Notes: generated by a model from the sequence alone, not told the origin. Shown: positions 30,101-63,149, counted from the stretch's first letter. The stretch is 64,000 nucleotides of DNA from an uncultured Thermoplasmata archaeon (GCA_963809035.1 CAWEHV010000002.1:1312113-1376112), one strand, 5' to 3'. A program made the numbers and translations.

Positions 30101-30371
30101 CCCATGGACGGTCTCGACCGTGAAAGGATTCACGGCCACTCCGGTAAGCGGGAAGCTCTCGGTTAGCGGAGCGAATGTCACCACGCCCATCAGCTTCGCT
30201 CAGAACACCACCACCAACGTGCCGCCCTCCAACAACACCTCGAACGGAGGAGTATTGGGCCTCTCCGACCTCGATTGGGTTGTCATCGGGGTATTCGGAG
30301 CATTGGCGGTAGTGGTACTCGCGGTCGTTCTGACGAGGTACCGGCGACCCGGCGCTCCTCCCGAGACCTGA
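27159..30371 (+). CDS. Surface protein: signal peptide, ~14 YVTN beta-propeller repeats, 7 'FxESGLPxxTxW' repeat modules, C-terminal TM anchor
   Basis: 'RRFWIVVPLVAILSLSGLVGA' signal; repeated 'VxVGxxPxxIAYDPxxGxxYVxN'; repeats 'FALTFQESGLPASTLWNVSV', 'YNVTFSAQGLPSGATFGVTL', etc.; C-terminus 'LSDLDWVVIGVFGALAVVVLAVVLTRYRRPG'. Confidence 0.8.
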   Translation: MMSPIDSMARRNSRVRRFWIVVPLVAILSLSGLVGAIPSSSAGGSGNGFHGAVGHATGEGRLGAVTPNLGRVTMGSSWRANAARSPSASFAPFVRSTLILLNSTLAAGNDLAGNGEGPYGAVLIPGTDLLVIPDEGSGYLSVLNVSTNQLITVGPVGTAPSAIAFDPTRDLLMVTDEGAGQVSIVSATNYSVLDRVDVGSSPDAIAYDPLNGTTYVVNGNSNNVTVINDSSMAVIATISVGNYPDGVAVDNHTDQIFVTDYYDDNVSVINASSNTVVKTVGVGSGPKGLVFDYLSNKVYVANSAGEDLSIIKDSTDSVTHTQEYGAYTSPQTIALDPANDTLYVTEGFAALSPVNNVTLVNVSTGAAILNISVGLYPYGIAYDPADQSVFVVNSASENVSRVSTISNNVTATISVGTHPHAIFYDPSAGEIWVSDTDSNNLTAISLTSGKLVGYVPANTFPSGLAFDPALGQLLVTDESSNEVTLINITTHSVTDTVPVSSQPIAASFDSLNGDYYISTSLDGGALAVLSSASDSVTGNVTLLGVLTRSSVFVPSLNETYVSDLGSATISIVSDVTNTRVKNVVVGTSPLGVALDPARGEVFAADSGSDQVSVINTSTQTVVATVPVGSQPSSVGYDPAAGEVFVTNSGSNNVSVINDTTNTVIANLAVGALPIGVTYDPTNQLMLVTNENQGTVSMIQTANTTFALTFQESGLPASTLWNVSVGGTSHQSTSSSVVFSEPNGTVAYSIGHVAGYHPAPSSGSLVVSGQPSIVNVTFATNAVQLYNVTFSAQGLPSGATFGVTLNGSAMSSLGGPLVFEEPNGSFPFSVSSVTGYRATPTSGAIVVHGTPADQTITFTENATPTYTVDFEESGLAPGTRWSVTFNGSLNASTTSEIGFKVSSGTYTYNVTPIPTYSASPSHGSVPVTGPTAVDIGYTIPAYVATFTESGLPSSTNWSVTLGGEPYWTTSASIYLDLANGSYPWTVSTVKGFTATPVSGKLSVSGANVTTPISFAQNTTTNVPPSNNTSNGGVLGLSDLDWVVIGVFGALAVVVLAVVLTRYRRPGAPPET

Positions 30372-30504
30372 TCCTGAGTCGATCCCACCCCGAGCTCGGG
30401 TAGACGCTTCTCGATCAATCCTACCGATCGTGACGACACCGGAGTGTCGAACGTGTACTGGCGCTTTTGTCCATCCCCTCGCCTAGTCCGACCTTTACGG
30501 GGCT

Positions 30505-30595
30505 TCCGCATAGGGTCCCTTCTGAAAGTCGGAGTTCCGCCGCCGTAGGGTTGACCCTTCGCAAGACCGGAGATTGCCAAAGGAGCCCATAGAGA
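30505..30595 (+). repeat. Intergenic repeat element copy C (module 2) between surface protein genes
   Basis: 'ccgccgtagggttgacccttcgcaagaccggagattgccaaaggagcc', ~90 % identical to copy A module 2. Confidence 0.55.
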
Positions 30596-31108: not shown

Positions 31109-32680
31109 ATGAGCATAACCAGAGTTTGGGGTGGACGATCCGCGGTGCGGGCCGTGGTGTCGATCGTGGTCCTCTGTTCCATGCTCGCGAGCGGTGGCGC
31201 GCTGGCCGGCCACCTCCACGCCGGTTCGTTGTACAATTCCTCCGACCTCTACGCCGGTTCGTCGTACAATTCCTCCAGCGTGGGAGCTGGAACGATGCCG
31301 GCAGCCTTGGTCGCGTCGACGATTCCCGTGGGATCCGACCCCACCGACGTCGTGTACGACAGTGGGAGAGGGGAGGTGTTCGTCATGAACGCGGTTTCGA
31401 ACACCGTGAGCGTGATCAACGACACGACGGACCTGGTCGTCGCGTCGATCACGGTGGGGGGCATTCCCCAGGCCGCGGTGTATGATAGCGGGAAAGGGGA
31501 GGTCTTCATCGAGAATGGGAGCTCGAATGGGGGCTACCCCTACCTCAGCGTGATCAGCGACGCGACGGACACGGTAACGACTACCGTCTACCTCGAGGGT
31601 AGTGGTGCCGACGCCATGGCGTACGACCGTGCGGCCGGCGAGATCGTCTTGTGCGTCCCGGAGGTCGGCGTAGTCGGCATGAACGACACGACGTATGCCT
31701 TCACGTCGCTCGGAGGCGGCGACTCTGCCGTGGGAGTAGCGGTGGACCCCGCGCTTTCGGAGATTTTCGTAACCAACTACGGAGCCGCCGGCACCGTCAG
31801 CGTAATCGGGGCCAGCAACGGGACCCCTGTGGCGACCATACCCGTGGGATCCGATCCTGTCGGGGTGGCGTACGACAGCGCGAAAGCCGAGGTCTTCGTC
31901 GCGAACTCCGGCACATACACCCTGAGCGTGATCTCCACCGCGACGAACAAGGTCGTCGCGAACGTGACCGTAGGTGCCGCCTACCAGACGCCAACTCCAA
32001 CGGGTGTGGCCTATGACGGCGCGATCGGGGAGCTCTTCGTTACAAACAATGAGGCGAACGATGTGGCCATAGTCTCGGACACGACGGACACCGTGACCGC
32101 GACCCTGGGGGTAGGAAGCAGCCCCTCCGGTGTCGCCTACGACAGCGCGAAAGGAGAGGTCTTCGTCGCGAACTCCGACTCCAACGACGTGAGCGTGTTC
32201 ACGCCTGGGGCAATTATCTACACCGTGTCTTTCGGGACCACCCCGGCGAACTGCAGCATCACCTTCGCCGGAAAGTCGTACGCGAGCGGTACGAACAATT
32301 CGAGCGTCCTCGAGGGGACGTATTCGATCGTCGCGAACGCGTGTAGCGGGGAGACGTTCGATTTCTGGGGGGACGGCTCTGGAAACGTCAAGTCCCCCAC
32401 CTCGTCCTCCACGACGGTTGTGATCAACGCAAGTGATCAGGGGGTGAGTGCGGTGTACACGTCAAGCGGATCGCCCTCCGGAACCCCCCCGGGGTCAGGC
32501 TCGCCCTCCTCGTCCTCGGGACTCTCCACGTTCGACTACGTGATCATCGCCGTCCTGGTGGTGGCCGTGCTCGTGATTGTCGCGGGAGGAGCCCGCAGGC
32601 GCCGAAGAAGGAAAGCATCCGTCGCTCCCCCGACGCCCTCCCGGGAGGCTGGCCCGGGCGTCCCCCCCCCTCCACCGTGA
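31109..32680 (+). CDS. Surface protein: signal peptide, YVTN beta-propeller repeats, Ser-rich linker, 'GLSTFDY' motif, TM helix, poly-Arg tail
   Basis: 'VVSIVVLCSMLASGGALA' signal; 'VxxTIPVGSDPxxVVYDSGRGEVFVMN' repeats; C-terminus 'SPSSSSGLSTFDYVIIAVLVVAVLVIVAGGARRRRRRK'. Confidence 0.8.
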   Translation: MSITRVWGGRSAVRAVVSIVVLCSMLASGGALAGHLHAGSLYNSSDLYAGSSYNSSSVGAGTMPAALVASTIPVGSDPTDVVYDSGRGEVFVMNAVSNTVSVINDTTDLVVASITVGGIPQAAVYDSGKGEVFIENGSSNGGYPYLSVISDATDTVTTTVYLEGSGADAMAYDRAAGEIVLCVPEVGVVGMNDTTYAFTSLGGGDSAVGVAVDPALSEIFVTNYGAAGTVSVIGASNGTPVATIPVGSDPVGVAYDSAKAEVFVANSGTYTLSVISTATNKVVANVTVGAAYQTPTPTGVAYDGAIGELFVTNNEANDVAIVSDTTDTVTATLGVGSSPSGVAYDSAKGEVFVANSDSNDVSVFTPGAIIYTVSFGTTPANCSITFAGKSYASGTNNSSVLEGTYSIVANACSGETFDFWGDGSGNVKSPTSSSTTVVINASDQGVSAVYTSSGSPSGTPPGSGSPSSSSGLSTFDYVIIAVLVVAVLVIVAGGARRRRRRKASVAPPTPSREAGPGVPPPPP

Positions 32681-33004
32681 TCCTGGGTCATCGCACGCCT
32701 AGGTCTCTCCCGGCCGCTCCTCCCCACCGTCGTCGCTCGCGTGAGCGACAACGAGGTCGCGGGCCGCCGAAATCGCGACCGCTCGCCCCCGGGGGATCAC
32801 AATAAGCACCCGTTAAGGGCGGAGGGTATTCGCTCGAGTGCCGGGCCCGAAGCGACGTCCGCGACGGAGACCCCCGCTCCCCCCTCCGATTTGCACCTGC
32901 TCGGCCGAATCATTCAAGTACCTCTACGCCCGAGTGTATCGACGTGGGCTGAGAGCCCTCCCGGGGGCTGCGAGGAGTTGAGCCGCTTCAAACTGACTGC
33001 TAGA

Positions 33005-40883: not shown

Positions 40884-43800
40884 ATGGCCGACCGGCGAGC
40901 GGTGACCGTGGCTGTGACCTTGGTGATCGGAGTTCTCGGTACTCTCGTCGTTGGGCCTCCTGGCAGGGCTGGGAACCTCCCCTTCCGCAGCCCACGGGGC
41001 GGCGTTGCATGTGGCTTCCTCGCGCAGCACTGCTCCAGCCTCGGCTGGAGGCGCTCGCTCCCCTGGCGCCCTTATGGCATCCGAGCTGGGCTTGAACGGT
41101 GTCGGCGGCAACGCTCTCCCCAATCCGGTGGCGGTCGAGGCGCTCGCCCAGGCCAAAGCATCGGGGGTACCCACGACCGATGTCTTCGTCCCCCGCGCTG
41201 GAGCCACTCCGGCCGAGGTCGCCCAGTCCATGGCCAAAGGCCACGTTACGCCGCTTTACGGTGGGGACACTCCGGCCCCGATCGGTCTCGCTGACTACGG
41301 TCTCTCCGCCAACCCGAACGGCAACGGCAGTATCGTGCCCTCGATCCTCAACACGCCCAGCGTGAAGGCCACTTTCGCCCCCAATGCGACCGGCATCCAG
41401 CCCCTCTACCCGTTCGACAGCACACCGGACGGCTACGGAGTGCAGCTGAACGCCGTCACGACCAACATCAGCCTCCTTGGCAACTCGAGCTACTCGTTCT
41501 GGACGCAGAATGTCGTGGAGTACTTGGCCCACGCGCACGAGCTGATCCTCGTCACGAACGTATGGAACTTCTCGAGCCCCTTGTCCTCGCTCTCAGCGAA
41601 CGCCATCTACCAGCACGGCGCCTACGGAACGCAGGTCGGCACCGAACTGTACTACGCCGAATATCCGGTCCTGACCTCGATCACCTATCCGTTCAGCGTG
41701 GACCTTTGGATGAACAACTCCGTCATCTCCGGGCGCAATGCCGTGAATTTCACGGTGGCGTTGAATGAGAGCGGCGTCACGACCGTCTTCCCATACGACT
41801 ACGTCATCTTCAACTCGACCAACCTGACCTCCGGACCGGCGCCTCCGTCGAACTACACGGCCAACGGCTACCAGTACAATCCCCTCGGACTCACGGATGA
41901 CTTCGAGGTCGTTCTGGGAGGCCCGGGCGGCGGGTCCCAGGCCAACCTGTATGCGGCGGATGCGAACTTCACCCTCCAGTATTGGAACATCTCCTCCTCC
42001 TCGTACAAGACGGTCCCTAGTGCTTTCTCCTACGGCGGCGAGACCGGGGAGACCGTCACCGGTGCGTACGTCGGGTGGCACAACGGGACGAACGGAGCCC
42101 CCTATGGGGCCGTCCGAACCGGTCCGTCGATGCTGGTCGGGCTCTGGAACGCGACCGGGGCCCCGGGCTTGGGTCAGGTCAGTCTGACGCTCTCACCGGA
42201 GAATGCGTTCGTCTTCTTCGGCCCCAACTGGACGAGCAACTTCACCCAGGGGGACCTACCCTACTGGGCGCCTCAAGAGACGACCAATACCTTCTGGCTC
42301 GCCCCTGGGACGTACGACCTCACGGTCGCTCTGAGCGACTATTTCCCGGTGGTGCTGTCGGTGACCGTCACGCTCGGCTCGAACCCGATCAGTGCGACCC
42401 TGGCGCTCGACACCTTTGAGGGGATCTACACTCCGATCTGGGTCTGGAATAACGACCAGTACGCCGCCGTCTCGAGCGGCGGGAGCGGGACTCCGAGCGA
42501 CCCGTACCATATCTACAACGCTCAGACGAACTTCATGCCGAGCGTCTTCGGAACTTGGAACGATTTCGCGTTCCCGGTCTTCACCGGGGTGTTCCTCTTC
42601 GGCACGACCGCCTCGGTCGTACTTTCCAATATGTCGGCCCTGGTGACCAGCATGCCCTCCGGGCTGGCCGCCCCGACCGACTCCCTTGGCTACGTCTTCT
42701 ACAACGCCTCGAACGTGGCCCTGGTCAACTCGACCAACATCAGCGGCTGGTACTCGAGCGGGCTCTACGACCCGGTGGATGCCCCGGCCTTCGCCGGAAA
42801 CTACTACGGGACGTTCAGCGTCGTCCTGTGGGACTCGTCGGGGAACCTGATCGCCGACAACACGTTCGAAACGCAATCCGGCGGCCTCACTCTGTCCGGC
42901 GGATCGAGCAACACCGTCTTTGGCAACTCGTTCACGATGGTACCCTTCCCGACGTTCCCGCACCCGACCGTCCTGTCGGGCCTGAACCAGAGCCTCGGCC
43001 TGCAGGAGACGGAGAGCGGGGACCTGGTCTACGGCAATGCGTTCGACACGACCGTCACCGCCGTGACCGAACCCTACGATCTCTACAACGGGAATCCCCT
43101 CGCTCCGCTCGAGACATGGAACATCACCCCCACGCCGGCGGCGACGATCCACTACGCGACGAACTTCCCCGACTTCCCCCTCACCGGGACGATCGTTGGC
43201 AACTCGACCCAGGGCGGCAACTACTGGTGGGACTACGGCGGGGCCTCCAACCCCCTCGGCACCCTTCCCTACACCGAGGTCCTGGTCGGGATCTCCCAGA
43301 TCTTCACCGGCGGCGACTACTGGCCCCTCGTCGCACCCACGCCCGCGAGCTACCTGGCCGCGTTCACAGAGAGCGGGCTGCCGGCCAGCACACCCTGGGA
43401 GATCTACCTCGCCGGCACCCACCCCGGGTCGAACCGGACGATCCAGTTCGACCTCACCAACGGCAGCTACCCCTGGTCCGTCGGCGCGGTGAGCGGCTAC
43501 GTAGCCCTGCCTCCCAACGGGACCCTGGTGGTCGCGGGCGAGCCGACGAACATCACGATCGCCTTCACCCCGGCGGTGCCCCCGACGACCTACCGGGTGA
43601 CGTTCAGCGAGACCGGCCTACCGAACGGAACGGCCTGGGCGGTCATCCTGGGCAGCCAGACGAACTCGTCGACCACCACCGTTGTCACCTTCGAGGATCC
43701 GAACGGGACCTTCCCCTTCTCGTTCGGGAACGTGTCCGGGTATCGGCCGACCCCGGTGAACGGACAGGTCACGGTCCATGGGGCCGCCCAGGGCCAGAGC

Positions 43801-44754
43801 GTGGCCTTCGCTGCGAGTTCGCGGACCTACACGCTCACCTTCTCCGAGACGGGCCTGCCGACCGGGACGCTGTGGTCCGTGGCCGTCGGACTCTCGAACC
43901 TGAACTCCACCGGCCCCGAGATCAATTTCAGCGTGACTCCAGGGACCCATGGCTATGAGATCGGCACGGTCGCTGGATACCAGTCCTCGCCCGCGAGCGG
44001 GGCGACGACGGTCCTGGCCGCGAACCAGACGATCTTGGTGGCGTTCACCAAACTAGCGAGCGGGGAGTACACGGTGACCTTCACCGAGTCGGGCCTTTCC
44101 ACGGGCACCAGTTGGTCGGTGACGATTGGTTCGACCACCCAACCCTCGACGGGGACCACGGTCGTCTTCACCGAGCTCAATGGGACGTACGCCTACTCGG
44201 TCACCACGGTCCCCGGCTATACCCTCGCTAAGTCCTCCGGGTCGATCACGGTCTCCGGAGCGAACACGGGGACCGCCGTGGCCTTCTCCGCCATCCCCCC
44301 TGGGAAGTACGCGCTCACGTTCACGGAGAGCGGTCTACCCGGCGGGACGAACTGGTCCGTGACGATCGGCACCTCCACCGTCTTTTCGAACGGGGGGAAC
44401 GTGGTCGCCTTCCAAGAGGCGAACGGTACGGCTTCTTACCAGGTCGCGTCGGTCGACGGATATACGGCCAGCCCGAGCGCCGGCTCGGTGGACCTCGCGG
44501 GGGCGGCCAAGGATGTGGCCGTCACGTTCTCCAGCAGTGGATCCTCGGGCTCCTCCAGCAGCGGGCTGTCCACTCTGGACTGGACGATCATCGCGGTGGT
44601 GGTCTTGCTGATCGTGATCGCGGCGGTGTTCGCGCTCTCCCGTCGCGGGCGCGGTGGTCCGAGCGCTACCATTCCGCCGGAGGGCTCCCCCACGGAACCG
44701 GTCGAGCCCGCGGGGCCCGGCGGGCCTCCGGCGGGGGGCGGGGATACGCCGTAG
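40884..44754 (+). CDS. Thermopsin (peptidase A5)-like giant surface protein + beta-helix region + 7 'FxESGLPxGTxW' repeats + C-terminal TM anchor; signal peptide separated from the body by a 1-nt frameshift near 40938
   Basis: Frame 0 'MADRRAVTVAVTLVIGVL' and frame 1 'SSLGLLAGLGTSP' together match the paralog N-terminus 'MADRRVMLLTVTLVTLVMILSSLGLLSVGA'. 'FWTQNVVEYL...LVTNVWNFSS', 'FEVVLGGPGGGSQANLYAADANFTLQYW' and 'FSYGGETGETVTGAY' align with thermopsin blocks (YWLQDVGQF..IDNVWNLTG, AELVWGGGGNG.., FGADTAEAAYN). C-terminus 'SSSSGLSTLDWTIIAVVVLLIVIAAVFALSRRGRGG'. Confidence 0.7.
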
Positions 44755-47800: not shown

Positions 47801-49878
47801 ACGGAATGATCCCGAACGCCGGGGTCGCCCTGTTCGAGAACGAGAATGAGACGGTCTCCAACGTCTCGACGGTCGACTACGCCTACGGCGTCTGGGACAA
47901 CTCCTCCGCGGACGGGGTCGCCTTCTCGAACATCACGTCGTGGAACGGCGGCACCGCGGTCGCGTTCAACGGTACCAACGGGGCCACCGTATCCTCCGTG
48001 TTCGCCTACGGCAACCAGTGGGGCGCGACGTTCCTCAACACGACCGCCACGACCGTGACCGCGAGCACCTTCGAGGGCTCGGCGAGCTACGGAGTGACCG
48101 TGACGGGGGGAAGTGGGTTCGTCGCCTACGGGAACAACTTCGTGGCGAACAACGGAGCCTCCACGAACGGCACGTTCAACGCCGCGACCGTCCAAGCCTC
48201 GGTGTTCTTGCCCTCGGCGATGTTCACGTACCTCGGGATCGGCAACTACTGGTCCGACTGGGACGGCTCGGGATCCTACACGATCAACGGCGCGGTGTCC
48301 GACACGGCACCGCTCGCTGCCTTCATCTCGAGCTGGCTCGAGATCAACGAGACCGGCCTCCCGGCGGGCTTCGCCTGGGGATTCACCCTGGACACGGTCG
48401 ACTACACCACCTCCGCCCCCCTCGTGTTCATCCCGAGCTGGAGCCTCGCGGACGCGACGCTCGGGTTCGTCGTGAACCCGCCCACCGGCTACACGCCCAC
48501 GCCCGCCTCCGGGACGATCCCGTACGCCGGCGCGAACACGACGGTGACCATCTCGTTCGTGAAGGCGCACTACAACGTAGTGTTCCAAGAGAGCGGCCTT
48601 CCCTCGGGCACGACCTGGAGCGTCACGTTCAACGGGACGACCCTGCAGGACACGACGGTCGGAAGCACCGGGTCGATCACGTTCTCGGTGTACGACGGCA
48701 GCTATCCCTACACCGTCGGGTCGGTGACCAACTACAACTCCGCTCCGTCGAGCGGGACGAAGGCCGTGTCGGGAGCCAACGTGAACGTGCCGATCGTCTT
48801 CACCCACGTGCCTGTGGCCTACTCGGTGACCTTCACCGAGTCGGGTCTGGTGCCGGGAACGTCCTGGTCGGTCACGCTCGGGTCGAGCACGAAGTCGTCC
48901 ATGAACACGACGATCGTGTTCTCCGAGCTCAACGCGAGCTACATCTACACCATCCCGAACGCCGACGGCCTCATACCGGCCCCTAGCGCGGGAACGATCG
49001 CGGTCAACGGGACGAACACGGGGCTGTCGGTCGTCTTCACCGCCGCCCCGGTGGGGACCTACGCGGTGGTGTTCAACGAGGCCGGCCTGGGACCCGGCAC
49101 CAACTGGTCGGTGACGATCGGTTCCTCGACGTTGTACTCTCGCGGGGGGACGAGCGTGACCTTTGAGCTCGTCAACGGCTCGTACACCTACCTGGTCAAC
49201 GCGGTCCCCGGCTACAAGATCGAGCAGGTGAGCGGTAGTGTGCAGGTGACGGGTCAGCCCCAATCATTCACCGTCACCTTCGTCGCTACCCCGTTCACCT
49301 ACACGATCACCTTCGCGGAGACCGGACTTCCGAGCGGCACCGACTGGTCGGTGACGATCGGGACCACGACGCACTACTCGGACGGGAACGCGACCGTCAC
49401 CTTCCAGGAAGGGAACGGGACGTACAGCTACCAGGTCGGGTCGGTCACGGGCTACTCGGTCTCGCCGTCGAGCGGCCCCCTCACCCTGACGGGCGCCGGG
49501 ACGAGCGTGAATCTCGCGTTCACGAGCACGGGCTCCAGTTCCTCGTCCTCCGGGCTATCGACCCTCGACTGGGCGATCATCGGGATCGTCATCGCGATCC
49601 TCGTGATCGTCCTGGTCGTGGCCCTGGTGATGCGCGGACGCGGCGGGTCGGGGTCCGGAGCGACCACTGACACCACCTCGACGACGACCTCCGACGAGAC
49701 GGTGAGTCCAGAACCGTGGGCGGAGGAAAGCCCCCCGGAGAGTCCCCCTAGTTCCCTGAACGGGAACCGGGACCAACCCTTTCCTCTCCTTTCTTCCCGA
49801 ATGCATCCGACCGCTGGACCGCTGCCTCAGCGTGCCTCGAGACCTTGGACCCGGGCGGAAAGGGTTGGAGACCGGTAG
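44893..49878 (+). CDS. Thermopsin (peptidase A5)-like giant surface protein (1661 aa) with extended parallel beta-helix region, 7 'FxESGLPxGTxW' repeats and C-terminal TM anchor
   Basis: 'VFWMQNVVHFNGTSLQFENNIWNMSS', 'LWDAELIFGGNGGGANAV', 'YDYGVDTGETADGVAAAYQG'. Middle region has N/G/S/T-rich beta-helix-like repeats. C-terminus 'SSSSSGLSTLDWAIIGIVIAILVIVLVVALVMRGRGGSG'. Confidence 0.75.
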   Translation: MWPAEMADRRVMLLTVTLVTLVMILSSLGLLSVGARAPAGPSRPSGVSPLVSAPAPPSPARPASTPVGLAQAGTTLPTTSTAVTPTEGVNPAVAKAKLLIAEKKLNPSSVFFPAAAPATPPSSTSSLTTAYTGNPAPMGLSDIGLGSSGPYIYNSSSFEASIHLNSFTDYNPGYSGWVAPPNYMTWQLNTVTVNVSFPGSTTGVFWMQNVVHFNGTSLQFENNIWNMSSSNAALNPGTLLNYNGTLVAGSFYYIYGPTFQVTYPFTLDLYNNITSRGGHPGLYFNYTLTNTTTGSHTGSFDYVTFNGTTSLSAPPQFSVNGKHYNPFGATPYLLWDAELIFGGNGGGANAVITNLNGTSTLRFWDKTAAKYENVRSAYDYGVDTGETADGVAAAYQGTTELLSQGPSMLYGLWNTSVSSWGPAANPGWINVDLTGQPSYGFVFGTNQSSANYLRGTGNWSYSPSGATGTTVTHLPPPASGNPYVFRAYANGFGQSNLTVSNNASGVAAFSLVANSKSFDTPVYLSTTAQVAAFGAAGLSGVTYSALHNGLWINKTQASYEIPFDLLNDFRYPEFMLFAADNLSTNVSLNHFVQDPLTFIYWKYDVIRATSYYADLTQGYFFNYGTGVFSVTNTTVAGSPYLTYDAGFTALSAVEFWQTTNSRAGWIITNGDSFGVDVMNSTRATLWNIQGETGANAIAVFYSEFVTATDISSNGTDLGGGVAGVTPFPTWAAYLELDRFVSLNGVTASNGSVWVFSVDDGALDLVNFSATNNVVLNGAGPEYGFMALFEGDLDDTLTNWVATNSSSYFPFIATFVEVVGLSVYNFSVSGVAPTGTLDPGSPIYGIVLDIPFGFYISAEVDLVDVTATFGAVAVLGEYVIGLTVDDITATAGGSAVVLEEAENFVASNVSASSAGIGIFVALATNVTAWNVTSSAGSVGVFVEGAVNVDVWNVNATSPSLGPAYFSNVALNGMIPNAGVALFENENETVSNVSTVDYAYGVWDNSSADGVAFSNITSWNGGTAVAFNGTNGATVSSVFAYGNQWGATFLNTTATTVTASTFEGSASYGVTVTGGSGFVAYGNNFVANNGASTNGTFNAATVQASVFLPSAMFTYLGIGNYWSDWDGSGSYTINGAVSDTAPLAAFISSWLEINETGLPAGFAWGFTLDTVDYTTSAPLVFIPSWSLADATLGFVVNPPTGYTPTPASGTIPYAGANTTVTISFVKAHYNVVFQESGLPSGTTWSVTFNGTTLQDTTVGSTGSITFSVYDGSYPYTVGSVTNYNSAPSSGTKAVSGANVNVPIVFTHVPVAYSVTFTESGLVPGTSWSVTLGSSTKSSMNTTIVFSELNASYIYTIPNADGLIPAPSAGTIAVNGTNTGLSVVFTAAPVGTYAVVFNEAGLGPGTNWSVTIGSSTLYSRGGTSVTFELVNGSYTYLVNAVPGYKIEQVSGSVQVTGQPQSFTVTFVATPFTYTITFAETGLPSGTDWSVTIGTTTHYSDGNATVTFQEGNGTYSYQVGSVTGYSVSPSSGPLTLTGAGTSVNLAFTSTGSSSSSSGLSTLDWAIIGIVIAILVIVLVVALVMRGRGGSGSGATTDTTSTTTSDETVSPEPWAEESPPESPPSSLNGNRDQPFPLLSSRMHPTAGPLPQRASRPWTRAERVGDR

Positions 49879-54807: not shown

Positions 54808-57597
54808 CTAGGCGGACCCGCCCTCGGACCCGGGTCCCGACCCCTCGGTGGGGAAGGGGTTCTCCTCGTACAGCTGCGCCCGGGGGGGTTCCCTCGCCCG
54901 GCGCCGCAGGTTGACCACCGCGACCGTCCCGACGACGACCACCACGATGTCCATGGCCAGCAGCAGGTAGTCGACCGGCCCGAACGCGAAGGGGGAAGGG
55001 ACGGTGGAGATAGCCACGAAGCTCAGGTACAAGGCCACGGGCGCCCCGTAGACCCCGAAGGATCCCTCGTCACGGGCCGAGGCGTAGCCGGAGACGCTGG
55101 TGACCCGGAAGAAGTGCGTGCCGTTCGGCTCGAGGAATACCATGGCGGGGCTGTTCGTATCCTGCTGGATGCTGTCCACGGTGGCGAACCAGACCGCTCC
55201 GTAAGGAAGGCCGGACTCGGTCAGCGTGACCCGGTACGTCGTCCGGATGAAGGTGGCCGCGAGCGCGGGGCCGGCCCCGTTGACGACGAACGTCACCCCT
55301 TCCACCGCCCCCTCGAAGGTCTTGTTCGCGCTGTCGACGAAGTACTGGTAGGACCCGTTCGTCAGGTTGAGCTCCACGAGCGTTCCTGTCGAGTTCACCG
55401 GTGCGTTGGCACTGAGATTGAGGTACCAAAGGGTTCCGGTCGGAAGGCCCGACTGTTGGAACGTGACCAGGTACGTCTCCGCGATGAACAGGACGGAGAC
55501 CGTCCCCTGGAGGTAGTTGGTGACGTACGCCCGGCCACTGACGGAATCGAAGGCCAGATCTCCCGGCCCCGCGCCGACCGGGACGGTCGCCACGACCGAC
55601 CCGAGGGAATCGGAGATGACGCTCACGTCGTCCTGGACGAGCGAGCTCGTGACCAGCACCTCCCCGGTCCCCGGGTCATACGCGGCACTTTCCGGGTGAC
55701 CCGGCATCGGGATCGCCCCCACGACCGCGTCGGTACGGTCCGAGATGATGCTGACGTTGTCGTCGAGGGAGTTCGCGACGAAGACCTCGGCTTGTCCGCT
55801 GTCGTACGCGATACTGACGGGGTTCGCACCGACCGAGACGGTCCCCACGACCCGGTTCGTGACGTCCGACACGACCGAGACGTTGCTCGAGAAGTAGTTC
55901 GCGACCATGACCTCGTGGCGTCCGGCGTCGTAGGCGATCCCCTCCGGGTGGTCGCCCACCGAGAACCGGGCGAGGACCGTGTTCGTCAGGTCCGAGATGA
56001 CGCTCACCTGGTTCGAGGCCCCGTCACTGACGAAGACCTCGCCCCGATCGGCGTCGTACGCGAGCCCGTCCGCGCCGCCCCGGACCGGGATAGTCGCGAC
56101 CACGGCGTTCGAGGCATCCGAGATCACGCTCACGACATTGGAGGCAGCGTACCCCACGAAGACCTCCCCGGTCCCGCCGTCGTAGGCGATGGCGTCGGGA
56201 AAGCTCGGGACCGCGACCGTGGCCACGATCGTGTTCGATACGCCCGAGATGACGCTCACCGTGTTCGAGAACGCGCTGATGACGAACGCCTCGGCCGCGC
56301 GGGTGTCGTAGGCCACCGCCACCGGCTCCGCCCCGACCGGGACCGTCGCCACCACCTCCTCGGACACATCGGAGAGGACGCTGACGTTGTTCGAGTCCGA
56401 GTTGGCGACGAAGATCCGGCCGGCGTTCCCGTCGTAGCTCATCCCCGCGGGCCCGCTCCCGACCGGGACCGAGCCCGCGATCCGGTTCGTACCGCCAGCG
56501 ATGAGGCTCACGTTGTTGGATCCGTGGTTGCCGACCACCACGTCCCGGGTGCCGGAATCGAACGTGACGCTCTGCGGTTGGCTGCCGACCGGGACGGTCG
56601 CCACGACCGTATCGGTCGAGTCGGACACGACACTGACGTTGTCCGAGCCGGAGTTGGTCACGAAGATCGTGCCGGTCAGGTCGTCGTACGCCACCGCGAC
56701 CGGATCGGTTCCGACCGGAACGGTCGCGAAGAGAGCCCCGGTCCCCACGGTGAGGACGCTGACGGTATCTGAACGGGAATTGCTGACGAAGAGCTGGTTC
56801 GTCCCGCTGTCGAGGGCGATCCCGGAGGGTCCGTCGCCCACGGGGATCAGACCCACCACGCCATCGGTCGTATCCGAAATGACGGTGACATTGCCCGTCG
56901 CCTGGTTCACGACGAACACCTCCCCCGCCGGACCGTCGACCACGGCCGCCACGGGCGAGCCTCCGACCGGGATGGTCTGGACCACCGTGTCCGAGGCGTC
57001 GGAGATCACGCTGACGCTCCCCGACCCGCTGTTCGTGACGAAGACCTCTCCCCGGCTCGCGTCGTAGGCCCCTCCGGTCGGACTTTCGCCGGTCGCGATC
57101 GTGCGGACCACGGGTTGGCTTCCGGAGGAGAAGACGGCCACGTTCGAGGAGTAATAGTTCGCGACGAAGACCTGGGCCGTCCCCCCATCGTAGACGAGCC
57201 CTTCCGGTGAGGCACCGTTCTCGGCCAGGAAATCGCCGGGAAGGAGGCTGTCGTTGAACAGGACGAGCGTTCCGGAGACGTACGGCCGTTGGGGGCTGAC
57301 CGAAGGGTGGGGCGCGAGCGGGGGCGGAGGTACCGCCGAAACCGCCGAGCCGCCGGAGCTCACTGGCTCAGAGGTCGCCCCGAGCGCGAGGCCCCGATCC
57401 ACCCCCAGAGTCCCTGGGGGTCCTCCGGAGGCCCCTGGGGGAGCCGGGGCATGGGCCAGCAGAACGAGGGCGACGAACCCACTAAGAATCACGACTCCGA
57501 CGGTCCCCAGGGCGACGGTCCCGGAAACCGTGCCCCGAGCCGGCCAGCGTTCCGGCGTCTTCATCTCGGGCGCGTCGGGGGGACGCAGGAGACCCAA
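54808..57597 (-). CDS. Surface protein with >=14 YVTN beta-propeller repeats, 3 'FxxSGLPxGTxW' modules and C-terminal TM + Arg tail
   Basis: N-terminal TM 'VALGTVGVVILSGFVALVLLA'; repeats 'VVxTIxxGxxPxGxAYDxxRGEVFVTN'; C-terminus 'VDYLLLAMDIVVVVVGTVAVVNLRRRARE'. Confidence 0.8.
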   Translation of the reverse strand: MGLLRPPDAPEMKTPERWPARGTVSGTVALGTVGVVILSGFVALVLLAHAPAPPGASGGPPGTLGVDRGLALGATSEPVSSGGSAVSAVPPPPLAPHPSVSPQRPYVSGTLVLFNDSLLPGDFLAENGASPEGLVYDGGTAQVFVANYYSSNVAVFSSGSQPVVRTIATGESPTGGAYDASRGEVFVTNSGSGSVSVISDASDTVVQTIPVGGSPVAAVVDGPAGEVFVVNQATGNVTVISDTTDGVVGLIPVGDGPSGIALDSGTNQLFVSNSRSDTVSVLTVGTGALFATVPVGTDPVAVAYDDLTGTIFVTNSGSDNVSVVSDSTDTVVATVPVGSQPQSVTFDSGTRDVVVGNHGSNNVSLIAGGTNRIAGSVPVGSGPAGMSYDGNAGRIFVANSDSNNVSVLSDVSEEVVATVPVGAEPVAVAYDTRAAEAFVISAFSNTVSVISGVSNTIVATVAVPSFPDAIAYDGGTGEVFVGYAASNVVSVISDASNAVVATIPVRGGADGLAYDADRGEVFVSDGASNQVSVISDLTNTVLARFSVGDHPEGIAYDAGRHEVMVANYFSSNVSVVSDVTNRVVGTVSVGANPVSIAYDSGQAEVFVANSLDDNVSIISDRTDAVVGAIPMPGHPESAAYDPGTGEVLVTSSLVQDDVSVISDSLGSVVATVPVGAGPGDLAFDSVSGRAYVTNYLQGTVSVLFIAETYLVTFQQSGLPTGTLWYLNLSANAPVNSTGTLVELNLTNGSYQYFVDSANKTFEGAVEGVTFVVNGAGPALAATFIRTTYRVTLTESGLPYGAVWFATVDSIQQDTNSPAMVFLEPNGTHFFRVTSVSGYASARDEGSFGVYGAPVALYLSFVAISTVPSPFAFGPVDYLLLAMDIVVVVVGTVAVVNLRRRAREPPRAQLYEENPFPTEGSGPGSEGGSA

Positions 57598-57702: not shown

Positions 57703-60459
57703 TCACGGGGCTTTGAACCAATCGGGGTCGGGTTTCCGACGCCTCTGGCGCCAGACGGCCCAGGAGATCAGAACGGCCACGGCGGCGACGATTCCCAGCA
57801 ACTCCGCCACGAGCGTCTCGGTCTGGGACCCCGGGGAGGGGCCCACGGCCCCAGGGGGAGGCTGGAAGCTGACCGGGATCGTCCCCGCCGGTGGTCCGTC
57901 GACCCGGACGGAGCTATTGGACGGCGAGGCGACGTATCCGCGGACCGGATCCACGACGTACCCGTACGACCCATTGGTCATCTGTGCAAACTCGATGGAG
58001 GGGGTCGTGCTGGATAGGAAAACCCCGTTCAGGACCACCGACCAGCTCGTGCCCGGCGGAAGACCGCTCTCGACGAACCCGAGGGTATACGTCGTCGGAA
58101 CGAAGACGACCTCCTCACGGACCGCCCCTCCTTCGACCTGGAGCGTTCCGCCCGCGAGGGTCGGATGGTAGATCGAGTTCGGAGTCCCGATGGAGTAGGA
58201 ATAGGTCCCGTTCGTGAGGTTGATCCACGCCGAGGTCGTCGCGGTGAGGACGGGTAGCTCGCCACTGACATTGAGGGACCACACCTGGCTCGTGGTAAGC
58301 CCGGTCTCGTTGACGGTCAACAGATAGGTCGTCGGGCCGGCCGAGAGCAGGGAGAGGGTGCCCTGAGCGTAATCACTGACCGCGAACTGCTCCACCGCTG
58401 GGTCCCAGGCCACGCCGCGAGGGCTCGCTCCGACCGGGACGGTCGCGATCACGGAATTCGTCGCGTCCGACAGTACGCTCGTGTTCGCCGAGGCGTCGTT
58501 GGCGACCGCGACCTCCCCCAGCCCCGGGTCGTAGGCGACCCCCTGGGGGGCGGACCCGACCCGGACGGTCGCGACCAGGGCGTCGCTCCGGTCGGAGAGG
58601 ACGCTGACGGTGTTGGAATCCTGGTTCGCGACGAACACCTCCCCCCGGGTCGAGTCGTACGCGAGACCATCGGGGTACGTCCCGACGGGGATCGTCGCTA
58701 CCACCCGGTTCACCGTGTCCGAGATCACGCTCACGTTGTCCCAGCCGACTCCGGGCTGCGTCACGAACACTTCTCCCCGCCCGCGGTCGTACGTCACCGC
58801 GTCCGGGGCACCTCCGACCGGGATCGAGCTCACCACGGTGTAGCTCGAGTCAGAGATCACGCTCACGGTGTTGGAGACCTCGTCGGCCACGAAGATCTCC
58901 CGAAGGCCCCCGTCATAGGCGAGCCCTGCGGGGCTCCCCGGAGAGGGCACGCTCGCGACGACCTGATCGCTCTGGTCGGAGATCACGCTGATCGTGTCCG
59001 AGCCCGTATTCGCCACGAAGACCTCCCGGGCCGCGGGGTCGTAGGCCAGCGCGCTCGGATCGAGGCCGACCGGGATGCTCGCCACGACGGTTCGGCTCGT
59101 ATCGGGGACGACCAACACTCGGTCGGTGGTGTAATCGGTGACGAACATCTCGCCCATCGCGGTATCGTACGCCACCGCGTCGGGGTACGAACCCACGGCG
59201 ACGGCGGCGATCTCGTTATACAACAGGTCCGAGAGCACGGTGACGCTGTTGGGAAAATAGCTCACGACGAAGATCTCCCCTCTTCCGGAGTCGTACGCCT
59301 CGGCCACAGGGGTCGTCGCCACCTGGGGGCTCGCGACGACGGTCGTGTTGGCCCCGAGGATCACGCTCAGGTTGCTCGACCCGTAATTGGCCACAAAGAC
59401 CTCCCCCCGCCCCGGGTCGTAGACCGTCGCAAGCGGGTTGGTTCCCACGGTCACGGTGTGCACGATCTGGTCGTTCGCGTCGGAGACCACGCTGACCGTA
59501 TCCGAGGCGTAGTTGGCCACATAGAACTCCGAGTTCTCCGTGTCGAACGCGACGGATACGGGATGTCTACCCGTCGTGACGCTCGCGACGACCGAATTGG
59601 TCACGTCGGAGATCACGCTCACGTTGTCCGAATCGTAGTTGGCTACGAACACCTCCTCGGGGGTCGGGCCATAGGCCAGGGCGTCCGGATCCCGGGCCGT
59701 GGCCACCGTCGCCACGACCGAGTCGGTGACGTCCGAGATAACGGATACATTGTCCGACCCCGAGTTCGCGACGAAGACCTCGGCCAGGCGGGGGTCGTAC
59801 ACGACCGCGCTCGGAGTGAATCCCACTGGAACCGTCGCGACGACCTGATCGTTCGCCCCGTCGATGACGCTCACATTGGCCGAATACAGGTTCGCTACGA
59901 ACACCTGGCCGGTGCCCGTGTCGAAGGCGTCGGCGTCGGGGTAGGTCCCGACCCGCACGGTCGCCACGACCTCGTTGAGAGCATCGGAGATGATGCTGAC
60001 GCTGTCGGTGGCGAAGTCGCAAATGAAAACCTGGCCGGTCGTGGAGTCGTACGCCGCGCCGTCGGGATCCGCCCCATTCCCGGCGAGGAAGTTACCGGGC
60101 AGTACGCTGCTGTTGAACAACACGACGGTCGCGGCCACGTGGGGAGCGTCGGCTCCGGGTCCCGAAGCCCTCCGCGTGCCGGGGGGCGAGGGAGGTGCGC
60201 TCGAGCCGAGGGTCCCATGGAGGGCGGGGACCCTGGGTCCAGGGCTCCCAGCATGGCCTGGAGCAGATTGAGAGACCTGGATCGGACTGGTCGGTGCCCT
60301 CCAGCCGTCAGGGACAACGCTTGGAATGGTTGGCAGACCCGGGGCCGTGATCAGGAAGGCTCCCGCAATAGCGATGGAGAGCGCCACCCGGAGGTGGAGT
60401 CCATGCCGCCCCGGGTGGTTCGGCCGTTCCATCCAACGTCCTCCCTGAGGGCAGGTCAC
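57703..60459 (-). CDS. Surface protein paralog: >=14 YVTN beta-propeller repeats, 3 C-terminal repeat modules, C-terminal TM + basic tail
   Basis: 'LRVALSIAIAGAFLITA' signal/TM; YVTN repeats throughout; 'YLLTVNETGLTTSQVWSLNVSG', 'YTLGFVESGLPPGTSWSVVLNG'; C-terminus 'LLGIVAAVAVLISWAVWRQRRRKPD'. Confidence 0.8.
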   Translation of the reverse strand: MTCPQGGRWMERPNHPGRHGLHLRVALSIAIAGAFLITAPGLPTIPSVVPDGWRAPTSPIQVSQSAPGHAGSPGPRVPALHGTLGSSAPPSPPGTRRASGPGADAPHVAATVVLFNSSVLPGNFLAGNGADPDGAAYDSTTGQVFICDFATDSVSIISDALNEVVATVRVGTYPDADAFDTGTGQVFVANLYSANVSVIDGANDQVVATVPVGFTPSAVVYDPRLAEVFVANSGSDNVSVISDVTDSVVATVATARDPDALAYGPTPEEVFVANYDSDNVSVISDVTNSVVASVTTGRHPVSVAFDTENSEFYVANYASDTVSVVSDANDQIVHTVTVGTNPLATVYDPGRGEVFVANYGSSNLSVILGANTTVVASPQVATTPVAEAYDSGRGEIFVVSYFPNSVTVLSDLLYNEIAAVAVGSYPDAVAYDTAMGEMFVTDYTTDRVLVVPDTSRTVVASIPVGLDPSALAYDPAAREVFVANTGSDTISVISDQSDQVVASVPSPGSPAGLAYDGGLREIFVADEVSNTVSVISDSSYTVVSSIPVGGAPDAVTYDRGRGEVFVTQPGVGWDNVSVISDTVNRVVATIPVGTYPDGLAYDSTRGEVFVANQDSNTVSVLSDRSDALVATVRVGSAPQGVAYDPGLGEVAVANDASANTSVLSDATNSVIATVPVGASPRGVAWDPAVEQFAVSDYAQGTLSLLSAGPTTYLLTVNETGLTTSQVWSLNVSGELPVLTATTSAWINLTNGTYSYSIGTPNSIYHPTLAGGTLQVEGGAVREEVVFVPTTYTLGFVESGLPPGTSWSVVLNGVFLSSTTPSIEFAQMTNGSYGYVVDPVRGYVASPSNSSVRVDGPPAGTIPVSFQPPPGAVGPSPGSQTETLVAELLGIVAAVAVLISWAVWRQRRRKPDPDWFKAP

Positions 60460-60644
60460 GTCAGCGGAACCCGGAACAGCTCTTCTAGGCTTCTGGGCGC
60501 ACCGTCGGCGGGGCGCCCAGCGACCATCGCCAGGTCGACTGGACCACCCCAGGATCGATTGGGGGCCTCAACGTGAGCCGGGCCCTTCGGCGCTGCTTCG
60601 GTCGGTCTCCGGGGCTTCCAGGGCGGGGAGAGACGCATGCATTC

Positions 60645-63149
60645 CTATGGGTTCGATCCAGGAGGCGGGACGGTGGGTCCAGGCGATCCCTGCTGCGGAG
60701 AGCCCGGGGCGGGGGCCGACCCACGTCCTCTCCGCATCAGCACGACCGCCGCGATGATGACCAGGATCGCGAAGATGATCCCGATGAGCACGGAGAGTCC
60801 GGTGCCCGAGGTGAGCGAGAAGCCGCTCGAGGACGATGTTACGGTGATCGTGTCGTGCGCAGTGACCCTCTGGCCCAGGGCGTCCGTGATGACCAACGTG
60901 ACGGTGTACGTGCCCGCCGATCCGTAGGCATGGGTCGGGCCGCCGCTGGAACTAGTCCCGCCGTCGCCGAAGTTCCAGGCATAGGAGAGGGGCGGCGTCC
61001 CGTCGCTGGCCCCGGCGCCGAAGCTGACCGTCTCGCCGCTCGCCGGCGAGGAGGGGATTGCCGTGATCGTGGCTCCCGCGAGCGCCGCGTTGACGAAGAC
61101 GGTCAGGGAAGCCGTTCCCACGAACCCGAGACTGTCGGTCACGTTGATCTGGACGTGGTAGGTCCCCGCCGCCGCGAACGTGTGCGTCGCGGACGCGGTG
61201 CTGGCGGTCCCTCCGTCGCCGAAGCTCCAGTGGTACGACCCGTACGTGCCGCTCCCGGAGGATCCGGATCCGGTGAAGCTGACCGGCAGACCGGCGTCCG
61301 TCGTCGTCACGTTCGAGGAGGCATGCGCCACCACCGCCGCGATCACGTCGACGGTGACGTTCCCGGTGACGTTTCCCCCGCCCGAGTCGTGGATGAGCAA
61401 GCTCGCAACGTAGGTTCCCGGCGAGGCGTATGTGTGGGTGGGGGCCACGGCCGAGGAGGTGCCCGCATCTCCAAAGTTCCAGGAGTACGTGTACGGCGAG
61501 ACGCCCTGACTTACCGTGGCGTTGAAGCTCACCTCGTGTCCGGCCTCGGCAGTGGTCGGATCGGCGTAGACCGTTACCTGAGGGCCGGCCACGACGCTCA
61601 GGTTGTAGAATACCGTCGCGTTGACGTAGAAGAAGTCCTCGACCGTGAACTCCATTTCGTACGTGCCGACCGCGGGGTAGGAGAGTTGCGTTTGGCTGTA
61701 GTTCCAGGGGGTGGTGACGTTGACCCCGTAGATAGTGGTCGATCCGCCCTGCGAATTCCCGTAGTCGGCCTCAAGGTCGATCCAAGGTCCGGACCCGGCA
61801 CCCGCGGCTCCGTGGATCGTCACCGTTACGTTGGCGCCCACGTCGGCGGGATTGGGGGAAACGGCCGATACCTCGAAGGTCGGCGGGATGTCGAGGCTGT
61901 AGGTTTGCCCGATGCAGGAGCAATATCCTCCGATCAGGACGGGGGCATAGGCCGAGCTGTTGACCGGCATCGCATTGTAGGCTCCCTCGGGAGGCGCGTA
62001 GGAACTGTTGGTGAGGAAGGGGAACCAACTGTTCCCGGAGAACGACCAGGAATCGTTGAACCCGGCCCCGGTTGTGTTCAAGCCGCCAAAGAGCAGGATC
62101 GAGTCGGTCTGCCCGTCCCAACTCATCGCCGAGAACGACCGCCCCGTAGGGTACAGGTCGCAAGTGAAGAAGCAACCGACCGAGGAGGCGGTGCGGTTCG
62201 TCCAGGTCCCGTCGGCGAGGGTCCAAGTGGCATTCAGCTGGGCGCCACTCGGGCTCGTTCCCCCGTAGGCGACCATCTCCTGGTCGGCCGCATCGTACGC
62301 CATCGACTCCCCGTAGACGAATCCGAAGGCCTCGACCCCGGACCATGTGCCGGAGGGCCCGAGGGACCAAATCGCATTCCAGACACTGCCGCAGGTTTCG
62401 TTCGTGCAGCCACTGACGTAGTCGATCGACTGGGTGGCAGGGTCCCAAGCCATCGCTCCGAACACCGACGACGGCGAGGCGCCGAGCCCGCCGGTGGTGG
62501 ATGTGATGTTTTCCCAGGTGCCGTCGGTGAAGAGCCAGGTACCGACATCGGGCAACCCGTTCAGATCCCCACCTCCGGCCATCACGATGCCTTCCAAGGC
62601 CGGGTCCCAGTCCATCGACTGACCGGCGATCGGGGGAGGGGCGATTCCGATCGTTAGGCTCTCGTTGACCCAGTTGTTGCCCCCGAAAGCCCAGGTGTAG
62701 TTGTCGGGGCACGGCCCCAAGATATCGCAGCCACCGAAGTAAATCAGTTCCCCAGTGCCGAGGTTAGGATCCCAGGCGATGGCGGCGACATAGGTGGGGT
62801 CGATCGTGCCTGCGTCGTCCGTAACATTGTACCACGAGGGAGAATTGGTAACCGCAGGAGCGGCAGACAAGCGACAGTGGGCCGAGCCCGCCATGAGCAC
62901 GGCACACGACTCGGAATGACCCAGTGCCGGGCCGGCTCCTCTTGCGAGGGAGGCTTCGGCCGACTGGGATACCAGGGACTCGTGGACCGCCGCAAGGGGA
63001 GCGGTCGTGGACCCAGCCATCGGCGCGACGAAGAGAGAGGTCCGGTCCTGAAGGGCGTTATCTCCGCCAATGATGCCCACCGCGAAGCCTAAAATCATGA
63101 CCGACGCGACGATTTCGACCAAGGTTCGAGAGGGTCGGGCGGGTGCCAT
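60645..63149 (-). CDS. Surface protein with Kelch/galactose-oxidase-like beta-propeller region, three PKD domains and C-terminal TM anchor
   Basis: PKD signatures 'YSWNFGDAGTSSAVAPTHTYASPGTY', 'YHWSFGDGGTASTASATHTFAAAGTY' and 'YAWNFGDGGTSSSGGPTHAYGSAGTY'. The N-terminal half has repeated W/G-rich blades. C-terminus 'SSSSGFSLTSGTGLSVLIGIIFAILVIIAAVVLMRRGRGS'. Start taken at internal Met 63149, just before the signal/TM. Confidence 0.75.
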   Translation of the reverse strand: MAPARPSRTLVEIVASVMILGFAVGIIGGDNALQDRTSLFVAPMAGSTTAPLAAVHESLVSQSAEASLARGAGPALGHSESCAVLMAGSAHCRLSAAPAVTNSPSWYNVTDDAGTIDPTYVAAIAWDPNLGTGELIYFGGCDILGPCPDNYTWAFGGNNWVNESLTIGIAPPPIAGQSMDWDPALEGIVMAGGGDLNGLPDVGTWLFTDGTWENITSTTGGLGASPSSVFGAMAWDPATQSIDYVSGCTNETCGSVWNAIWSLGPSGTWSGVEAFGFVYGESMAYDAADQEMVAYGGTSPSGAQLNATWTLADGTWTNRTASSVGCFFTCDLYPTGRSFSAMSWDGQTDSILLFGGLNTTGAGFNDSWSFSGNSWFPFLTNSSYAPPEGAYNAMPVNSSAYAPVLIGGYCSCIGQTYSLDIPPTFEVSAVSPNPADVGANVTVTIHGAAGAGSGPWIDLEADYGNSQGGSTTIYGVNVTTPWNYSQTQLSYPAVGTYEMEFTVEDFFYVNATVFYNLSVVAGPQVTVYADPTTAEAGHEVSFNATVSQGVSPYTYSWNFGDAGTSSAVAPTHTYASPGTYVASLLIHDSGGGNVTGNVTVDVIAAVVAHASSNVTTTDAGLPVSFTGSGSSGSGTYGSYHWSFGDGGTASTASATHTFAAAGTYHVQINVTDSLGFVGTASLTVFVNAALAGATITAIPSSPASGETVSFGAGASDGTPPLSYAWNFGDGGTSSSGGPTHAYGSAGTYTVTLVITDALGQRVTAHDTITVTSSSSGFSLTSGTGLSVLIGIIFAILVIIAAVVLMRRGRGSAPAPGSPQQGSPGPTVPPPGSNP

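Follow-up and report, generated by a model that had tools for sequence, protein, structure and literature searches.

A 64-kb stretch of DNA from an uncultured Thermoplasmata archaeon (GCA_963809035.1 CAWEHV010000002.1:1312113-1376112), analysed here as a whole and called the window, is an archaeal cell-surface and glycosylation region with a G+C content of 55-67%. Its genes include those for eight large secreted proteins and several glycosyltransferases, besides an archaeal type IV pilin gene, three genes for PIN-domain toxins and a few housekeeping genes. Four of the large proteins, termed p1 to p4 and all encoded on the plus strand, end in a common C-terminal plan, in which a linker rich in Ser, Gly, Thr and Asn is followed by the motif G-L-S-[TD]-[LF]-D-[WY], by a hydrophobic transmembrane (TM) helix of 18-20 residues and by a basic cluster (Table 1). 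Here, we describe this C-terminal module, its conservation and its distribution, and discuss whether it anchors surface proteins in the membrane or marks them for processing.

Anatomy of the C-terminal module in p1 to p4

A search of all six frames of the window found the strict form of the motif, G-L-S-x-[LF]-D-[WY], four times, against 0.0097 occurrences expected from residue composition, in each case directly before a TM helix and an Arg cluster. A first-pass annotation of the window had assigned the shared tail to at least five large proteins. This is correct for p1-p4, in which motif, TM helix and basic cluster are all present, and incorrect for the fifth (60645-63281), which carries a motif of its own, GFSLTSGTGL. 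The positions that had been given for the tails (40884, 44893, 31109 and 27159) are gene 5' ends, the motifs starting at 30258, 32519, 44563 and 49552; moreover, the tails quoted as protein ends had been cut at the basic cluster, after which 7 (p1), 21 (p2), 31 (p3) and 34 (p4 of a related strain; 76 as read in the window) further residues follow. The N-termini are basic and then hydrophobic in p1, p2 and p4, and also in p3 once a frameshift is corrected. The exact p2 protein is on record in metagenome contigs, and the cytoplasmic tail of p3 includes the tryptic peptide GGPSATIPPEGSPTEPVEPAGPGGPPAGGGDTP.

Table 1. Coordinates of the module-bearing genes, of other C-terminal anchors and of neighbouring genes in the window (aa, amino acids; ORF, open reading frame; TM, transmembrane helix).
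Feature	Coordinates	Strand	Description
p1	27159..30371	+	1070 aa secreted YVTN/NHL beta-propeller with three FxExGL-type repeats; matches TIGR02276 and PF21783
p1 module	30204..30371	+	N/T/S-rich linker; GLSDLDW 30258-30278; TM to 30335; RYRR to 30347; 7-aa tail PGAPPET; stop
p2	31109..32680	+	523 aa secreted YVTN/NHL propeller, without FxExGL repeats
p2 module	32465..32680	+	S/G/P linker; GLSTFDY 32519-32539; TM to 32593; RRRRRRK to 32614; 21-aa Pro-rich tail ASVAPPTPSREAGPGVPPPPP
p3	40884..44754 (body ORF from 40951)	+	Thermopsin-like, beta-helix, five FxExGL repeats; PF05317 E=7e-51
p3 module	44509..44754	+	SSSGSSGSSSS linker; GLSTLDW 44563-44583; TM to 44640; RRGRGG to 44658; 31-aa acidic Pro/Gly-rich tail
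p4	44893..49878	+	Thermopsin-like, 1661 aa as read, right-handed beta-helix, five FxExGL repeats; PF05317 E=1e-52
p4 module	49498..49749	+	STGSSSSSS linker; GLSTLDW 49552-49572; TM to 49632; RGRGG to 49647; 34-aa acidic Thr/Ser/Pro tail with PW[SAKD]E[EG]
p5 anchor (Kelch/PKD protein), non-member	60645..60824 (gene 60645-63281)	-	GFSLTSGTGL; TM; RRGRG; 24-aa Pro-rich tail
p6 anchor (propeller), non-member	54808..54984 (gene 54808-57597)	-	FGPVDYLLL... TM; RRR; 29-aa tail
p7 anchor (propeller), non-member	57703..57813 (gene 57703-60459)	-	LVAELLGIV... TM; RQRRRK; short tail
Tail of the 'degraded gene', non-member	13114-13593	-	TM helix from 13296; scattered Arg; no GLS motif, no Ser linker
PIN-domain protein	36217-36684	+	
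PIN-domain protein	37381-37791	-	
PIN-domain protein	38369-39154	-	
VapB-like antitoxin	34897-35307		
MazE/AbrB-type protein	26131-26502		N-terminal zinc ribbon; upstream of, and outside, the toxin-antitoxin cluster
Archaeal type IV pilin-like gene	32741-33616	+	PF07790 Pilin_N; directly downstream of p2

The reading frames of p3 and p4 are each affected by an indel, as determined by comparison with a metagenome contig of a related strain (L007) that is 98.8% identical to the window. A 1-nt insertion (an extra G) at 40938 puts the p3 signal peptide, starting with the ATG at 40884, out of frame with the body of the protein, and the loss of one C from a C-run at 49744 abolishes the p4 stop codon, so that the last 42 codons of p4 are read-through. 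In the related strain p4 ends with PWAEESPPESPP followed by the stop, which gives the 34-residue tail. Further single-base indels with respect to the same contig lie at 40747, 50331 and 51846. Either homopolymer assembly errors account for these indels, or surface-protein genes undergo pseudogenisation or phase variation in this particular strain.

Conservation and family-wide distribution

The distribution of the module was examined with a profile of 11 tails (alignment A6), compared with 1.84 billion representative proteins and counted in clusters at 50% identity. This search recovered 146 clusters at E <= 0.001, 14 of which at E <= 1e-10. A smaller profile of five tails found nothing at E <= 0.01 in a word-indexed database of 5.8 billion proteins, for whose size the query is too short and too biased, and scans with strict patterns, too narrow to sample the family, retrieved only four GTDB and three metagenome loci, all of them p3/p4 orthologues. 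Over the 146 clusters, the motif columns are occupied by G (91%), L (78%), S/P/T (64/20/12%), T (53%), L (66%), D (73%) and Y/W (92%); the helix follows the pattern x-[IL]-I(79%)-G/A(72/22%)-V-V and, later, L(77%)-x-R-R-R-R, with Arg at the four consecutive positions of the basic cluster in 57/86/50/74%. The 30 residues upstream of the motif consist of 23% Ser, 15% Thr and 11% Gly, Ser and Thr together making up 38%.

All the family members with a source name are proteins of 'Thermoplasmata archaeon' metagenome-assembled genomes (MAGs), annotated as hypothetical or as YncE/YVTN family, and two copies per locus are found in related MAGs. A Pfam census of 61 members revealed a wide range of passengers, including NHL/YVTN (14), PKD (5), CarboxypepD_reg (4), phosphoesterase (3), Kelch (3) and thermopsin (2) domains, together with fn3, PEGA, pro-kumamolisin (S53), purple acid phosphatase and DUF929. 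An N-terminal hydrophobic stretch is present in 48 of the 71 members that start with Met and are at least 400 aa long, as judged by a crude rule and not by a dedicated signal-peptide predictor. Judged from these sequences, the tail is a new modular C-terminal domain family under selection, which occurs on unrelated passengers in many Thermoplasmata MAGs.

It is very improbable that the tails are alike only because a few paralogues of this genome have a common ancestor or recently underwent gene conversion, with no special meaning attached. p1, p3 and p4 have FxExGL repeats just upstream of the tail, and the tail could therefore have travelled with the repeat; p2, instead, produces no BLAST high-scoring segment pair with p3 or p4 and has only the tail in common with them, and a p2 homologue at 37% identity still keeps GGLSTLDY. 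The bodies of the paralogues are 34-41% identical. Furthermore, when the p3 and p4 tails are compared, 14 of the 24 identical residues, including four of the seven in the motif, are specified by different codons, which excludes recent gene conversion as the source of their identity. The 146 clusters with their many unrelated passengers lead to the rejection of a paralogue-only origin, and the enrichment beyond paralogues that the first-pass annotation had proposed to seek with a tail profile has thus been found, in contradiction to a 'paralog-specific TM anchor'.

Orthologues are found in Thermoplasmata MAGs from SPRUCE peat, acid soil and other sources; one of them comes from the acid-soil isolate AcS1-45, whose name fits the genome scheme used for Lutacidiplasmatales (PMC9287336). 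Overall, identity to the orthologues is 46-70% in the ectodomain, 86-100% in the motif, 60-85% in the TM helix, 100% in the RGRGG/RRGRGG cluster and 24-68% in the cytoplasmic tail. For p3 the values are 70% (ectodomain), 86-100% (motif), 79% (TM helix) and 100% (RRGRGG), and for p4 46-61%, 100%, 60-85% and 100% (RGRGG), respectively.

The module is generally followed by a cytoplasmic tail. In 144 clusters the number of residues after the basic cluster is <=5 in 12, 6-15 in 27, 16-30 in 53, 31-50 in 38 and >50 in 14, with a mode of 21; thus at least six residues, and mostly 16-50, follow in 132 of them (92%), and the GLSxLD[WY]-type tails of the first homologue sets all have 6-35. The composition of these tails is biased (P 28%, S 12%, A 12%, G 10%, T 8%, E 7%) and R accounts for only 3%. 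In about a dozen of the 50%-identity clusters, with passengers of 353-1067 aa, the tail is exactly 21 aa long and follows the pattern APP.P...PSQPG.G.PP.PP, which is also that of p2, and PW[SAKD]E[EG] is present close to the C-terminus of every p4 orthologue, in spite of an ectodomain identity of 46-61%. An origin of the tails by read-through of GC-rich DNA was considered and rejected, given the low Arg content and the conserved length and motifs. Such conservation of length and motif within subfamilies is not what would be expected of a segment that is cut off and discarded.

Other anchors and neighbouring elements of the window

Three further large proteins of the window, p5, p6 and p7, are encoded on the minus strand and end with anchors that do not belong to the family (Table 1), and the protein encoded at 102-5123 has no C-terminal anchor. 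The gene at 13114-15293, which had been described as degraded and as keeping the same tail, retains a TM helix and scattered Arg residues and has neither the motif nor the Ser linker. A homologue of p5 with 35% identity conserves GFSLTSGTGL in ten positions out of ten before the helix, with Y in place of the 'S' of 'GLS'. Other surface-protein families of the same genomes likewise have their own conserved juxtamembrane motif followed by a TM helix and a basic cluster (GFSLTSGTGL and the ..TLVFLGA.GL type), so that strongly conserved anchors are a general trait of this lineage, not one bound to a single signal.

Several other tails were encountered among the homologues. A sister tail, found in seven metagenome proteins of Thermoplasmatales-like affiliation (P0018, P0022, P0023, P0039, P0053, P0056 and P0057), consists of a Ser-rich linker, G[IM]SxxE[LI]Y, a helix of the type IIGAVVAIAVIG... 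and RKRK, and matched no curated model. A third class of Thermoplasmata anchors (P0134, P0141, P0164, P0169 and about 20 others) is defined by [FL]LGLPGxDGYY, a helix starting with (V/L)LGG and RRR; its cytoplasmic tails range from 0 to 67 aa and four of them contain the zinc-ribbon motif CPACG...CESCG. Many archaeal homologues of p2 (P0073, P0084, P0087, P0100 and others, among which only P0137 has a name, Nitrososphaerales) are YVTN propellers ending with GSFFGTFP.SPMSGKDIF.HSK.LWAGLF... and a helix, with no basic cluster; these tails match NF041501, 'FGLLP motif-containing membrane protein', with about 26 bits, below its cut-off of 150. Elsewhere, p2 homologues end with FLGLPGxDGYY, with tails that are PEF-like by eye, with other tails or with none.

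Genes for sorting enzymes were sought as well. In Pfam and NCBIfam scans of the window, no gene for an exosortase, archaeosortase, rhomboid or CPBP protein was detected, and the neighbourhood sampled around one family member contained no candidate sorting enzyme. Two orphan polytopic proteins were considered and discarded. The one encoded at 8017-8907 on the plus strand (296 aa, about eight hydrophobic segments), beside glycosylation genes, matches no Pfam or NCBIfam model and has no histidine, and so cannot carry the Cys-Arg-His triad attributed to exosortases and archaeosortases (Haft, bioRxiv 10.1101/2023.06.07.544157); the one at 15533-16738 has no family match.

The segment at about 8000-26000 has a lower G+C content (53-57%) than the rest of the window (61-67%) and is rich in GT2 and GT4 glycosyltransferase genes, of which several are split or truncated (17135-17668 / 18052-18771 / 18704-19336). 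It also contains the fragmented gene at 13114-15293, which lies downstream of the polytopic protein at 15533-16738. This segment could represent a glycosylation island that was acquired or is decaying. A toxin-antitoxin cluster (34897-39154) lies between the surface-protein pairs p1/p2 and p3/p4. The gene order p2-pilin is also found in two independent metagenome contigs (L001 and L002). The FxExGL tandem repeat is about 80-85 aa long, starts with F/V-x-E-x-G-L-P-x-G-T-x-W and contains NGTY.Y; besides the copies in p1, p3 and p4, there are 12 in protein 102-5123 and two each in p6 and p7. The repeats are not covered by any Pfam model, giving only spurious weak matches, and are widespread among Thermoplasmata and mine-drainage metagenome proteins. 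Exact look-ups of p5, with two alternative starts, and of protein 102-5123 matched no record.

Membrane anchor, sorting signal or shedding site, and comparison with known systems

We lean, with modest confidence, towards the view that the tail is a conserved type-I (bitopic) membrane anchor of Thermoplasmata surface proteins that would be retained on the mature protein. The sequences show what is expected of such proteins: a signal peptide at one end and, at the other, one TM helix followed by positively charged residues and a tail on the cytoplasmic side. The conserved length and motifs of the tails support this view indirectly. The related anchor classes of Thermoplasmata, with zinc-ribbon tails in the FLGLPGxDGYY class and family-specific juxtamembrane motifs in others, point in the same direction, as does the lack of a sorting-enzyme gene in the window. 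From the sequence features we infer the following arrangement. The N-terminal signal peptide would route the protein through Sec, and the C-terminal helix would act as a stop-transfer anchor whose Arg cluster sets the N-out/C-in orientation according to the positive-inside rule. Outside the cell, the stretch rich in Ser, Thr and Gly would form an extended stalk, probably glycosylated, and G-L-S-T-L-D-[W/Y] would lie at the outer membrane interface, with its acidic and its aromatic residue in the interface zone; the conserved small residues of the helix (I-I-G-V-V-V-A) suggest helix-helix packing. The short Pro-rich or acidic tail would stay in the cytoplasm, where the motifs APP..SQPG.G.PP.PP-COOH and PW.EE.PP presumably bind a partner. 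In this way the module may tether thermopsin-like acid proteases, YVTN propellers and other exo-proteins to the cell.

Several observations weigh against such an anchor. No other part of these proteins is conserved as well as the module, and its upkeep through different codons would suit a specific recognition element no less than a passive anchor. Furthermore, of the eight attributes of C-terminal sorting domains listed by Haft (bioRxiv 10.1101/2023.06.07.544157), seven, from the second to the eighth, are found here: several copies per genome (four in 64 kb); at least three near-invariant motif residues (G, L, D and Y/W, at the frequencies given above); a hydrophobic TM helix; a basic cluster of two to five residues; an N-terminal signal peptide on most members (the N-termini of p1-p4 and, by the crude rule, 48 of 71); pairs of members sharing only the tail (p2 versus p3 or p4, and the varied Pfam passengers); and homologues without the tail or with another one (p6, p7, protein 102-5123 and the p2 homologues). 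Only the first is absent, since the residues that follow the basic cluster in p1-p4 keep the module away from the extreme C-terminus. In addition, the sister tail with G[IM]SxxE[LI]Y ends exactly at its basic cluster in seven cases out of seven and fits the published sorting-domain criteria better than the tail of the window itself. Since motif and basic cluster are conserved beyond what a passive anchor would seem to need, a sorting signal or a shedding site keeps some probability.

A new C-terminal sorting signal is nonetheless rather unlikely. According to this explanation, a membrane enzyme, archaeosortase-like or another intramembrane protease, would cleave at GLSTLD[W/Y] and transfer the protein to a lipid or another anchor, the helix and the cytoplasmic tail being discarded or the tail serving as a recognition handle before cleavage. 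A near-invariant motif abutting the TM helix and followed by R-R-R-R, the presence of at least four copies in 64 kb, passengers that are mutually unrelated, homologues that lack the tail or replace it (also with tails that are PEF-like by eye) and a conservation of motif and basic cluster above that of the ectodomain are all in agreement with it, as is the 38% of Ser and Thr upstream of the motif, close to Haft's description of sorted proteins. On the other side stand the cytoplasmic tails conserved in length and motif, a signature without Pro in 80% of the members, unlike PEP, PGF, PEF, PIP and VPXXXP, and the lack of a candidate enzyme in the window, where the protein at 8017-8907 has no His; besides, archaeosortases are described by Haft in halophiles and methanogens only. 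None of the papers searched links archaeosortases with Thermoplasmata, Thermoplasmatota or Thermoplasmatales or has anything relevant on GGIII or GLSTLD, and the Lutacidiplasmatales paper with its supplements (PMC9287336) makes no mention of sortases. There is a small chance that GLSTLD[W/Y]-TM-RRR(G) would be a Thermoplasmata-specific sorting or recognition domain read by a divergent archaeosortase, rhomboid or CPBP-type enzyme, with the Pro-rich tail as a second handle, a design that, if true, is absent from the catalogued CTERM systems. The archaeosortase-type signal proposed in the first-pass annotation is not borne out by a module that in 132 of 144 clusters is separated from the C-terminus by at least six residues and is followed by conserved cytoplasmic tails, so that the earlier interpretation, as a whole, is partly supported.

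Even less probable is a juxtamembrane shedding site, in which a type-I protein would later be cut near GLSTLD[W/Y] by a rhomboid-type or surface protease, releasing the ectodomain (e.g., thermopsin) and leaving a stub with the conserved cytoplasmic tail. The conservation of these tails is compatible with shedding, and the helix, with G in 72% and A in 22% of the clusters at its fourth position, is directly preceded on its outer side by small residues (S, G). Small juxtamembrane residues together with G or A in the helix resemble rhomboid substrates. The GlyGly-CTERM/rhombosortase system is a precedent for rhomboids that target G/S-rich motifs directly before a TM helix. These points have to be set against the absence of a rhomboid gene from the window and against a motif whose conservation is just as high on propeller, PKD and Kelch proteins, which are not enzymes.

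In the uncultured Thermoplasmata that inhabit acid soils and peat, the module marks a large set of exo-proteins, among them acid proteases and phosphoesterases as well as propeller and PKD/Kelch proteins, and a profile built from it would make the surface proteome of these archaea easy to list. A permanent anchor would mean that digestive enzymes are tethered to the membrane, and the conserved Pro-rich handle inside may bind a cytoplasmic partner; a processed one would mean a new sorting system in a lineage without a known one. Under either reading the domain merits a curated model, as annotation pipelines now label these proteins only as 'hypothetical' or 'YncE family'.

As the first-pass annotation had stated, the motif lies outside the catalogued variants: no Pfam model covers the tail, and no NCBIfam CTERM model (PGF, PEF, PIP, VPXXXP, Loki etc.) reached its cut-off on the tails of p1-p7 or on 46 homologous tails, although these missing matches are weak evidence, because in the PEF-type control the same scan flagged none of the tails of thaumarchaeal homologues that look PEF-type by eye. 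The nearest curated model is NF041738 (GG_III-CTERM, 'GGIII-like transmembrane region-containing protein'), with a cut-off of 22 bits, which scored 20.4 bits on p1, 7.4 on p4, 7.1 on p5 and 10-20 on related tails and had no match in p2 and p3. It aligns with the helix and the basic part, and not with GLSTLD[WY], and was rejected as the identity of the tail, being always below cut-off; it seems closest to the FLGLPGxDGYY class, though below cut-off there as well.

Like PGF-CTERM/archaeosortase A, the PEF-, VPXXXP- and PIP-CTERM systems and the exosortase-dependent PEP-CTERM, the module combines a Ser/Thr-rich linker, a short motif abutting the TM helix and an Arg cluster, and occurs in several copies per genome on unrelated secreted passengers. 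Unlike PGF-CTERM-type systems, it has no Pro-centred signature, its basic cluster is followed by a conserved Pro-rich tail of typically 16-50 aa, TIGR04126 and related models stay below cut-off, no archaeosortase is found in the window and the lineage, Thermoplasmata, is outside those for which Haft describes archaeosortases. With GlyGly-CTERM/rhombosortase, whose processing enzyme is an intramembrane protease and not an exosortase (Haft), it shares a stretch rich in Gly and Ser directly before the TM helix and the basic cluster. However, GlyGly-CTERM is bacterial and located at the extreme C-terminus, whereas the module of the window has no GG signature and no rhombosortase is encoded there.

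Ordinary C-terminal TM anchors are known in archaea, for instance in the S-layer stalk proteins of Sulfolobales and in the membrane glycoproteins of the wall-less Thermoplasma. The likeness to these anchors would extend to the signal peptide, the single C-terminal helix, the positive-inside residues, the glycosylated stalk and the retention in the membrane. In contrast to them, the module of the window has a juxtamembrane and helix sequence that is unusually conserved across unrelated passengers, and it is coupled to conserved Pro-rich cytoplasmic tails.

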